Source of the DNA: Planctomycetota bacterium
Lineage (GTDB): Bacteria > Planctomycetota > GCA-002687715 > DRQF01
Assembly (NCBI GenBank): GCA_027001995.1
Contig: JALTLO010000026.1
Span: forward strand, 1 to 14,999
Length of the DNA: 14,999 nt
Direction: 5' to 3'
Both the position numbers and the translations under genes were made by a program. The number at the start of each line of letters is the position of its first letter. Position 1 is the first letter of the stretch. The notes under the pieces were generated by a model. It saw only the letters and a list, made by a program, of their open reading frames with translations, was not told the origin of the DNA and made no database searches. Shown here in pieces: positions 9,364 to 12,353 of the stretch.

Positions 9364-9738
9364 TCAGTTCTCGGCGGTAACCTTCTTCAAAGAAACGCAG
9401 GAGAACTTGGTGGTTTTCAAAGCAGCGTTCACCTTCTCAATGTCCAAGACCACAGAGTCTTTGACCGAAACGATGGCCGAATCTGAGATGAAACCTGCGG
9501 AGACGTGGGAGACACCTTCCAGGTGTCCGAGTAAGGCCTTTTCGACCTGAGCCACTCAGCTCGGCCCTCACAAGGGGGTGAGCTGAAGGTCATAGATCGT
9601 TTCGCCAGCCTGGCTTTCAGGAAAGCTGGGATTTCCTTGAGAGAAATACCAAGCAACAGCCAGGATTATCGCGACAAGCAAAAGAGGTTTTAGGAACTTC
9701 CTCTTACTCACCGTGGATGGAGATTCTGATTCGCTCAT
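9364..9738 (-). CDS. Putative double-selenocysteine HMA-domain (MerP/CopZ-like) metal-binding protein with N-terminal signal/membrane anchor, 124 aa, U57 and U61
   Basis: Manual minus-strand translation from ATG 9738 (alternative GTG 9711): MSESESPSTVSKRKFLKPLLLVAIILAVAWYFSQGNPSFPESQAGETIYDLQLTPL*GPS*VAQVEKALLGHLEGVSHVSAGFISDSAIVSVKDSVVLDIEKVNAALKTTKFSCVSLKKVTAEN. Both in-frame stops are TGA (9568-9570, 9556-9558) and fall at the Cys positions of the HMA motif C..C-V-x-x-VEKAL...EGV. SECIS-like hairpins lie immediately downstream. Confidence 0.8.
9511..9527 (-). promoter_or_regulatory. Candidate bacterial SECIS element 2 (for UGA at 9556-9558)
   Basis: Minus-strand RNA: GACACCU-[GGA]-AGGUGUC, a perfect 7-bp stem with a G-initiated loop 35 nt after the second UGA. 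Folded by eye. Confidence 0.45.
9527..9559 (-). promoter_or_regulatory. Candidate bacterial SECIS element 1 (for UGA at 9568-9570)
   Basis: Minus-strand RNA: CUGAGU-GGCUC-AGGUC-[GAAAA]-GGCCU-U-ACUCGG. It has a 5-bp upper stem with a G-initiated apical loop, 24 nt after the first UGA, and a 6-bp lower stem. Folded by eye. Confidence 0.55.
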
Positions 9739-11150: not shown

Positions 11151-11333
11151 TACCCCTATTCCCGAGGGGTGTCAAAAAAACTGACAGTCGTAACGATGGC
11201 GTAACGGTGACCTCGTTGGTCCTCAGTCGCAGCAAACTATCCACATAGACATAAACGCTTGTAGCAAAACAGTTTGCAACAATCGCCTCATTTGGCACAG
11301 GAGTCGCATAGATGCTTGGCAACGGAGAATCCT

Positions 11334-12353
11334 ATGTCCCGCTTGTTAAGCAAATTGATCGTCGTCAGTCTTCTTGTTTCCTTGGCATCTTGTCACGCTG
11401 TGGACTCATCATCGACTGTCAAGACCCCGAAAACCCAAACCATTGACACTTCCTTGGAGGCGGAGCCCGCCTACGAATTGGCTACTTTGGTGCGCTTGGA
11501 AAAGCGACAGCCCCTGGAGTCCGAAGGACTTCATAATGTTTATGTCTTAAGCGAGAACATTTCCTCGGGCTCAGAACCTGAAGGTGAGGAAGCTTTCGCG
11601 CGACTGCAAGAAATGGGAATCAAGACCATCCTCTCCGTCGATGGCAAGCTTCCAGAAGAAGCTTTAGCAAAGGCCCATGGCATGCGCTATGTCCACATCC
11701 CGATCCAATACAAAGGCATTGAAGACAAGGCTCTTCTGCATATCGCCAAGACGTTTCGCGAGCTGGAAGGCCCATTCTACGTTCACTGCTTCCATGGCCG
11801 ACACCGAGGGCCAGCGGCGGCGGCTGTTGGTCGCATCGTCCTCGACGGGGCCTCCCGCAAGAAAGCTCTGGCTGAGATGCGCCAATGGTTTGGTACGTCA
11901 TCCAAATACGAAGGTCTCTACCAACTCATCGCTCACGGAGCCTTGCCATCCGAGTCACTCACCCAAGAAGCCTCCTGGGACTTCCCAGCAGCCCATAGAG
12001 TTGAGGGGATTGCCAGTTCTATGGTGAGCATCTCTCGGGCTGAGGACGCCCTTAAGACCTCAGCAAAGCTCAATTGGGGCATCGATCCAGGGCACCCAGA
12101 TTTCAATGCGGTCAATGAAGCCAACATCCTGTTGGAGAGTTTTGAGCGTATGTCTGCCCTTTCGGCGGTTTCCCAGGGGCCACCTTCTTTGCGAGCCAAT
12201 GCAAAAGCCTCCATCTTCGCCACCCAGCAACTCAAAGACCAACTGTCCCGTTTTGCCCAAGGCGATGCCGCCGCTGGTCAATTGGCCTTGGGGAGCATGA
12301 AAACGATCAAACGCCTATGCAGTTCCTGCCATCGCGCCCATCGCAACCACTGA
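11334..12353 (+). CDS. Lipoprotein: CX5R protein-tyrosine/dual-specificity phosphatase-like (or sulfurtransferase-like) domain fused to a cytochrome c'-like (class II) domain
   Basis: ATG 11334 follows SD GGAG. Signal peptide MSRLLSKLIVVSLLVSLAS-C has a lipobox. PTP/DSP-fold motifs: SGSEP, GIKTILSVD, GMRYVHIPI, GPFYVHCFHGRHRG (CX5R). The helical C-domain ends in CSSCHRAHR, a C-terminal CxxCH typical of class II cytochromes c. Confidence 0.85.
   Translation: MSRLLSKLIVVSLLVSLASCHAVDSSSTVKTPKTQTIDTSLEAEPAYELATLVRLEKRQPLESEGLHNVYVLSENISSGSEPEGEEAFARLQEMGIKTILSVDGKLPEEALAKAHGMRYVHIPIQYKGIEDKALLHIAKTFRELEGPFYVHCFHGRHRGPAAAAVGRIVLDGASRKKALAEMRQWFGTSSKYEGLYQLIAHGALPSESLTQEASWDFPAAHRVEGIASSMVSISRAEDALKTSAKLNWGIDPGHPDFNAVNEANILLESFERMSALSAVSQGPPSLRANAKASIFATQQLKDQLSRFAQGDAAAGQLALGSMKTIKRLCSSCHRAHRNH

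Follow-up and report, generated by a model that had tools for sequence, protein, structure and literature searches.

We analyzed a 14,999-nucleotide stretch of a Planctomycetota genome (referred to here as the window; contig JALTLO010000026.1 of assembly GCA_027001995.1, genome G000) and found that it very probably contains a hidden selenoprotein gene. The gene would encode a functional 124-residue protein with two selenocysteines (Sec, U) in an HMA-type domain. The protein is predicted to be anchored in the membrane and to face outward, it is a candidate carrier of soft metals, and its two UGA codons would be decoded with the help of hairpins that serve as selenocysteine insertion sequence (SECIS) elements. 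On the evidence of its orthologs, the gene is real and conserved, not a product of chance.

A conserved frame with two in-frame UGA codons

When TGA is read as U, positions 9367 to 9738 (-) form a single frame of 124 codons with TGA at codons 57 and 61 and the motif L-U-G-P-S-U (Table 1). The DNA around the UGA pair is TTG TGA GGG CCG AGC TGA GTG, and the translation is MSESESPSTVSKRKFLKPLLLVAIILAVAWYFSQGNPSFPESQAGETIYDLQLTPL-U-GPS-U-VAQVEKALLGHLEGV... A mechanical list of open reading frames (ORFs) splits the gene into 9364..9555 (-, 63 amino acids, GTG) and 9568..9738 (-, 56 amino acids, ATG). The original prediction had taken the 3' piece, 9364..9555, for a fragment of a hidden gene, had read upstream through two TGAs four codons apart in the same frame, and had quoted the strings KRKFLKPLLLVAIILAVAW, TIYDLQL, and VAQVEKALLGHLEGVSHVSA. 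The read-through frame is confirmed, with U57 at 9568-9570 and U61 at 9556-9558, and all three strings are found in the sequence.

Table 1. Features of the two-Sec gene in the window
Feature	Position	Strand	Description and evidence
Selenoprotein coding sequence	9367..9738	-	124 codons, ATG 9736-9738, two in-frame UGA codons; full-length ortholog alignment, dN/dS <1 on both sides
True stop codon TGA	9364..9366	-	Ortholog frames end at the aligned place
Leu56 codon TTG, directly 5' of UGA1	9571..9573	-	Nucleotide-invariant in orthologs
UGA1 = Sec57, β1-α1 loop	9568..9570	-	TGA in 14/14 orthologs
UGA2 = Sec61, first turn of helix α1	9556..9558	-	TGA in 13/14 orthologs; TGC (Cys) in G005
Predicted N-terminal membrane anchor or signal-anchor helix, residues 16-33, basic K-R-K before it	9640..9693	-	AlphaFold2 helix, hydrophobic in orthologs
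Predicted HMA-fold domain, residues 46-120, β-α-β-β-α-β	9379..9603	-	AlphaFold2, Foldseek, family profile, Pfam HMA
Hairpin H1 (A), starts within UGA2	9529..9557	-	Candidate SECIS for UGA1; RNAfold and recoding z
Hairpin H2 (B), 7-8 bp stem, apical loop UGGAA, codons G-H-L-E-G-V	9510..9528	-	Best-supported SECIS candidate; proposed for UGA2

A six-frame search with a family profile, reading through stops, found full-length orthologs in 12 of 401 sampled genomes of the phylum, at 84 to 163 bits. Nine of these 12 fall in the order of the window's genome: its own family contributes 5 (of 9 genomes), and a second family 4 (of 8). A six-frame search with the single protein matched 14 of 61 related genomes, and most of the matches hold two TGAs. 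We also scanned metagenome contigs with a DNA pattern, which gave 41 loci: four family members, two of them new sequences, and 37 chance matches. The ortholog set used here consists of the 12 genome sequences and the two new metagenome sequences. The genome search covered only the window's own phylum, and the metagenome contigs carry no taxon label.

The motif is L-U-G-x-x-U in 13 of the 14 orthologs and L-U-G-S-S-C in the remaining one, from genome G005, which has Cys at the second Sec column. Invariant residues flank the TGAs on both sides (P40, L56, G58, V65, L73, G75, V76, A81, G82, and A106). Nei-Gojobori dN/dS for seven pairs was 0.14 to 0.39 upstream of UGA1 and 0.22 to 0.57 downstream of UGA2; two upstream values were not computable, as synonymous sites were saturated. 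Judged by these ratios, purifying selection acts on both sides of the TGAs. The original prediction had proposed to look for homologs with C/C, U/C, or U/U at the two columns and for conservation both upstream and downstream. Both were found, the homologs being 13 U/U and one U/C, and dN/dS lying between 0.14 and 0.57.

Contigs of an independent sequencing study contain a relative that is about 93% identical across the whole stretch. Among the differences listed (40 of 46), 21 of the 24 in the coding sequence and all 7 of those upstream of UGA1 fall at third codon positions, and there is no change at either TGA or within hairpin H2. The third-position bias, the dN/dS below 1, and the unchanged TGAs in an independent assembly make a pseudogene or an assembly error, which the original prediction had named as a way in which it could fail, very unlikely.

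The codon immediately before UGA1 is also conserved. It is TTG in all 12 genome orthologs, giving a kept context of UUG UGA GGN, and TTG accounts for only 3 to 10% of Leu codons in nine high-GC ortholog genomes. The invariant TTG points to a constraint at the nucleotide level. At the end of the gene, the stop codon of the aligned ortholog frames is TGA in 9 of 12 and TAA or TAG in 3 of 12.

The window's genome, which is 92% complete, has the machinery for Sec. It encodes SelA (510.9 bits), SelB (334.3 bits, contig C17), and SelD (357.2 bits), each above its curated cutoff, and selD itself has one in-frame TGA (S-S-G-G-U-A-A-K). A tRNA-Sec gene with anticodon tca adjoins selA-selD, and the three form one cluster at C148:21750-24413. 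A search of the genome for selA, selB, selC, and selD had been suggested along with the original prediction, and all of the components, SelA, SelB, SelD, and tRNA-Sec, are present. Both UGAs are almost certainly decoded as Sec by this system.

Gene callers truncate the gene at the TGAs, and so protein databases give only fragments of it. A word-indexed protein search with the U-to-C protein as the query gave no match. An exhaustive search of 1.84 billion representative proteins gave six matches. Three are fragments: one of 56 residues from the N terminus (95% identical), one of 61 residues from the C terminus that comes from the same genus and is named 'hypothetical protein [Planctomycetota bacterium]' in its source, and one of 43 residues. 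The others are one ordinary CxxC HMA repeat protein and two repetitive proteins (P0004 and P0005), and we treated the latter two as spurious.

Hairpins downstream of the UGA pair

Two hairpins follow the UGA pair. RNAalifold predicted H2, which has a UGGAN loop and lies on the codons R/H-L-D/E-G-V. On the 14 sequences, 93.9% of cells are paired, and three pairs have changed on both sides. The covariation score was reached by 0 of 500 shuffles, and when the partners were slid by one to three columns, only 33 to 57% were paired. The window's genome is alone in having A-U where the others have G-C in H2; there, CGC has become CAC, replacing Arg by His, and the partner base has changed with it through a silent GGC-to-GGU substitution in a Gly codon. 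The available text of PMC1088965 describes the bacterial SECIS as a stem-loop that follows the UGA closely and has a small, G-containing apical loop, and H2 agrees with that description in its 7-bp stem, UGGAN loop, and covariation.

H1 has an RNAfold energy of -9.1 kcal/mol in the window. A hairpin forms at this site in every ortholog, in a register that differs between orthologs. We also considered an H1 helix of fixed register, but only 57% of its cells are paired, so it is not conserved by column.

We then compared each of the 12 genome orthologs with 300 synonymous recodings drawn from its own local codon usage. The mean z was -1.92 over H1 and -2.28 over H2, with z below -1 in 11 of 12 orthologs in both cases; it was -0.95 in the upstream control (5 of 12) and -0.61 in the downstream control (3 of 12), and these trials are not independent because the orthologs are related.

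We also surveyed all 39 Sec-containing HMA domains in the retrieved loci, 23 with two Sec and 16 with Sec and Cys. A UGGAN-loop hairpin at the place of H2 was found in 22 of the 23 two-Sec domains versus 2 of the 16 Sec/Cys domains. Under a stricter rule of at least four contiguous pairs, the counts were 17 of 23 versus 1 of 16. The two Sec/Cys exceptions with H2 are next of kin to two-Sec domains; one is the G005 ortholog, and the other belongs to a tandem pair, in which it comes second. The first hairpin, GGUC-loop-GACC, occurs in both classes.

This pattern suggests, as a working hypothesis, one SECIS hairpin per UGA. In this scheme, Sec insertion at UGA1 would depend on H1, which comes right after UGA2, and insertion at UGA2 on H2 with its UGGAN loop. 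Decoding by one tandem SECIS hairpin per UGA was not found described in the literature searched. With two hairpins after two-Sec sites and one after one-Sec sites, it becomes testable how bacterial SelB serves two UGAs that are 12 nucleotides (nt) apart.

Predicted fold, metal site, and known relatives

AlphaFold2, run on a 12-sequence alignment, gave a model with a mean pLDDT of 82.4, and of 88 to 94 across the domain. It consists of a helix (16-33), a strand (46-53), a helix (59-72), two strands (76-82 and 87-93), a helix (100-109), and a final strand (114-120). A Foldseek search of the PDB with this model matched HMA7, Atx1, ZntA, MerP (1osd, TM 0.80), and CopZ (6ff2, TM 0.84), and the top 27 among the matches listed are all HMA proteins. 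The family profile, searched against the PDB, matched ATP7B at 1.5e-22 and then the HMA domains of Cu and Zn ATPases, CopZ, and MerP. Each of 10 family members has a Pfam HMA match at E <= 1 (best 6.8e-6), and the window protein matches TIGR00003 at E 8e-4. The HMA assignment of the original prediction is thus borne out at the level of profile and fold, although not by the protein's own Pfam score.

The N terminus is hydrophobic in all 12 genome orthologs. Two of them have a lipobox in place of the transmembrane helix, LLWAC in G054 and LLAAC in G078. By the positive-inside rule, the HMA domain would face outward. The protein would consist of an N-in membrane anchor, a short linker, and an extracytoplasmic HMA (ferredoxin-like) domain, in line with the exported or anchored protein that had been predicted.

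The ligand motif sits at the usual place in the HMA domain but reads [PG]-L-U-G-x-x-U, not GMxCxxC. Relative to the HMA motif, Sec replaces Cys, Leu stands in place of Met-Thr, and there is one extra residue. In a hidden Markov model alignment to the ATP7B HMA domains, Sec61 falls on the second Cys of CxxC, and more distant relatives have the sequence G-M-T-U-G-x-x-[UC]. Therefore, Sec57 would replace the first Cys, with a Gly inserted after it, so that the ligands are spaced by three residues, not two. We suggest that the two selenolates of the U-G-P-S-U site may bind a soft metal ion and that the protein may act as a membrane-tethered periplasmic carrier or chaperone of that metal. Cu(I) is the most likely metal, with roughly an even chance of being the right one.

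Among the closest known domains are those of CopZ/Atx1 and the N-terminal HMA domains of Cu/Zn P-type ATPases, which share the fold and the ligand position and give the best profile hits (ATP7B, 1.5e-22; CopZ) and fold hits. However, these domains are cytoplasmic and carry CxxC or UxxC, whereas the window protein is predicted to be extracytoplasmic and free-standing, with UxxxU. A UxxC selenoprotein form of 'Cation-transporting ATPase E1-E2' and a MerT-type selenoprotein are on record, the former in the available parts of PMC13188914 and PMC9312934 and the latter in that of the review PMC13188914. NCBIfam also holds NF045683, a MerT/CopZ fusion selenoprotein.

A two-Sec metal-binding selenoprotein of HMA type is already on record, as a prediction only, in NCBIfam NF041115 ('UxxU_metal_bind') and in a table in the available part of PMC13188914. 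Like the window family, NF041115 is a small HMA-type domain with Sec at both metal-ligand positions. It differs in its U-x-x-U spacing, where the window family has U-G-x-x-U. The window family also differs in having a membrane anchor or lipobox, and it has been seen in its own phylum, the sole phylum searched, and in unlabeled metagenome contigs. The best of 10 family members matches NF041115 at E 4e-4, far below the 95-bit cutoff, and the window protein has no match at E <= 10. TsoA, an LULAxC selenoprotein (NF045695, cutoff 170 bits), was considered for its similar spacing and dropped; it has two weak matches elsewhere in the genome at E <= 10 and none at the locus. No curated cutoff of any NCBIfam model was reached by the family or by the 12 wider relatives tested.

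The original prediction knew of no UxxxU HMA family. That statement holds for the spacing, since U-x-x-x-U was not found among HMA selenoproteins in the literature searched, beyond which papers may describe the family; it does not hold for two-Sec HMA proteins as such. UxxxU, UxxxC, and PF00403 do not occur in the available text of the review PMC13188914, and an HMA selenoprotein is absent from Table S9 of a planctomycete genome paper (PMC4807772). Compared with these records, the branch is a UxxxU two-Sec HMA variant outside the curated models, whereas HMA selenoproteins as such are already known. It adds an unannotated two-Sec family to the bacterial selenoproteome. Sec is rare as a metal ligand in an exported protein, and a site in which both ligands are Sec would offer a natural comparison of selenolate with thiolate in soft-metal coordination.

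Candidate functions, gene neighborhood, and wider relatives

A more specific function is suggested by one lineage. Four genomes of another family (G013, G019, G021, and G022, from two genera) have ctaA/COX15 (heme A synthase) immediately upstream of the gene, in the same orientation. For two of them, G013 and G019, the coordinates were worked out, and there the end of the ctaA frame and the start of the gene overlap by about 34 bases. In this lineage, the protein may be tied to the maturation of heme-copper oxidase. Extended to the whole family, the di-selenolate HMA protein would carry Cu(I) in the periplasm and act as a redox partner in the maturation of heme-copper oxidase, as an analogue of Sco and PCuAC, and it would be decoded through two tandem SECIS hairpins, one per UGA; we consider this full version doubtful. 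The likeness to Sco1/SenC and PCuAC, which are copper chaperones of the CuA site, would be one of working mode and not of ancestry. Like Sco, the window protein has an N-terminal anchor, a periplasmic domain, and a ligand pair three residues apart, but its fold is that of HMA, whereas Sco and PCuAC are thioredoxin-like or cupredoxin-like. Both ctaA and a Sco homolog are present elsewhere in the window's genome, and PCuAC was not found there. PCuAC was found in 13 of 401 genomes of the phylum. Because it is so rare, its absence from the window's genome carries no weight, and we dropped the idea that the gene replaces PCuAC, also in view of the Sco homolog.

Several observations weigh against our reading of the gene. 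The window protein scores 16.9 bits (E 0.0083) against Pfam HMA (PF00403), short of the gathering threshold of 24.8 bits, so the case for HMA homology depends on the family profile and the fold prediction. Cys at the first Sec column was not found among the full-length orthologs, and only distant CxxC HMA relatives align there. The usual pairing of Sec with Cys is therefore seen only at the second position, in G005, and in the distant HMA relatives. The neighborhood gives little guidance. On one side, a Na+/H+ exchanger gene (TrkA-N domain) converges on the gene, and on the other, a class I methyltransferase gene diverges from it; this arrangement is common only to the genus and not conserved across the family. 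There are no cop, mer, or cox genes in the window, and the link to ctaA is limited to four related genomes of two genera.

Other such observations concern the hairpins. The G005 ortholog retains H2 with its U/C form. H2 lies 24 to 27 nt past UGA2 and 36 to 39 nt past UGA1, which is longer than the spacing of 11 nt in the SECIS of Escherichia coli fdhF. The bacterial SECIS consensus is usually put at 16 to 37 nt from the UGA to the apical loop, a range within which the spacing of H2 from UGA2 falls. H2 coincides with the conserved peptide motif L-[DE]-G-V and with particular clades. Therefore, the association of H2 with two-Sec domains is confounded by this motif and by clade relatedness. Rfam gave no SECIS or other credible match, and the loop of H2 is not shared by the hairpins that follow the UGA of selD or of the U-V-P-U gene in the same genome.

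The U-G-x-x-U site could instead be a redox centre, making the protein a membrane-tethered periplasmic oxidoreductase. It would work by diselenide/selenol cycling or through selenenyl-sulfide links to partner cysteines, for example those of CtaA, Sco, or oxidase subunit II. The Sec pair is placed at the N terminus of a helix, like CxxC in thioredoxin, and Sco proteins have CxxxC with the same three-residue spacing. The operon with ctaA in four genomes would also fit, and so would a paralog in the same genome. This second two-Sec HMA gene (contig C188:266-1060, +; locus L029) is a lipoprotein-like ORF of 265 codons with the motif T-U-Q-A-U. Its UxxU HMA domain (Pfam, 32.7 bits) is fused to a WCVPC-motif thioredoxin domain (44.6 bits), and its UGAs are followed by an H2-type hairpin, GAGUCCC-UGGAA-GGGAUUC. 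In addition, most known bacterial selenoproteins are redox proteins according to the available parts of PMC13188914 and PMC1088965. However, fold and profile searches matched the window family only to metal-binding HMA domains, and the window protein has no thioredoxin-like features, so we regard a purely redox role as unlikely. The two roles are not mutually exclusive, as oxidized MerP (1osd) illustrates. Just upstream of the paralog, at the contig edge, is an HMA of Cys type (GMHCEAC).

That the protein works in the manner of MerP, scavenging toxic soft metals (for example Hg(II), Ag(I), or Cd(II)) for detoxification and not for copper supply, seems to us equally improbable. MerP (TIGR02052; PDB 1afi and 1osd) is the closest solved exported HMA protein; it too is a single domain with its ligand pair in the β1-α1 loop, and the TM scores are 0.75 to 0.80. 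A Sec form, labeled 'Mercuric transport protein MerP', has been reported from ocean (GOS) metagenomes in the available part of PMC2398784. The G054 ortholog adjoins an OEP and ACR_tran (RND) efflux pair, and a relative in G173 adjoins RND efflux genes and an ArsR-type regulator gene. The best-matching DNA record is labeled a hydrothermal vent metagenome, which may be the source sample itself, and no RNA record containing the stretch was listed. However, merT, merA, merR, or other mer genes are near none of the 12 orthologs, and TIGR02052 matches 2 of 10 members, at E 0.01 or weaker, with a cutoff of 92.55 bits. Unlike MerP, the window protein is predicted to be membrane-tethered and not soluble, and it has two Sec and a ligand spacing one residue longer. 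A soft-metal carrier, a redox protein, and a scavenger of Hg type can overlap in their roles.

We consider it very improbable that these UGAs are translated as Trp, Cys, or Gly, whether through near-cognate read-through or a reassigned code, or that Sec is inserted at just one of them. Two Sec insertions within 12 nt are a demanding task, which speaks for such a reading. However, of the other 11 long ORFs in the window, 6 end in TGA and none has it internally, which indicates that it is a normal stop here and that the code is not reassigned. The TGAs also fall exactly at the metal-ligand columns, where relatives have Cys, in a genome with the full Sec machinery, and structured RNA follows them.

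The last alternative, two nonsense mutations in a decaying HMA gene or an artefact of assembly, is suggested by gene callers that stop at the TGAs and by public databases that hold only fragments, but it has a negligible chance of being right, as the original prediction had argued on parsimony, given TGAs at identical columns in 13 of 14 orthologs of several families despite saturated synonymous divergence, purifying selection downstream of them, and an independent assembly without a change at the TGAs among the differences listed.

Around the orthologs of the putative two-Sec soft-metal carrier, the neighbors vary. The ctaA-selenoprotein unit (loci L080-L083) is divergent from a sulfatase/peptidase S9/HEAT fusion gene in G013, G019, and G022. 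The G329 ortholog follows an ABC transporter gene and a DUF3299 gene. In G005 and G008, the ortholog adjoins a gene for a protein of 1,046 to 1,049 residues (L078:2822-5959 and L079:935-4081). The N-terminal domain of this protein is of the ECF sigma type (regions 2 and 4), and its long C-terminal part includes a CarboxypepD_reg-like domain.

Among 22 loci of wider relatives, no recurring partner was found within 1.5 kb. A broad set of exported HMA-like selenoprotein genes occupies loci L041-L075 (genomes G010-G392 of the same phylum). Their proteins have signal peptides, often tandem domains, and K/E-rich tails, with the motifs GMT-U-G-x-x-U, GMT-U-G-x-x-C, and GMT-U-G-G-C. The window family is one visible member of this larger group of exported Planctomycetota HMA selenoproteins (GMT-U-G-x-x-U/C), which gene callers cut into 'hypothetical' fragments.

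Elsewhere in the window, positions 11274-12353 (+) hold an ORF of 359 residues with an N-terminal hydrophobic stretch, the motif HCFHGRHRG (H-C-x5-R-type), and a C-terminal C-S-S-C-H (CxxCH). Pfam gave no match to it at E <= 1e-5. At the same relative position, the two same-genus genomes have an ORF of similar length, likewise unmatched; position and length were the properties compared.

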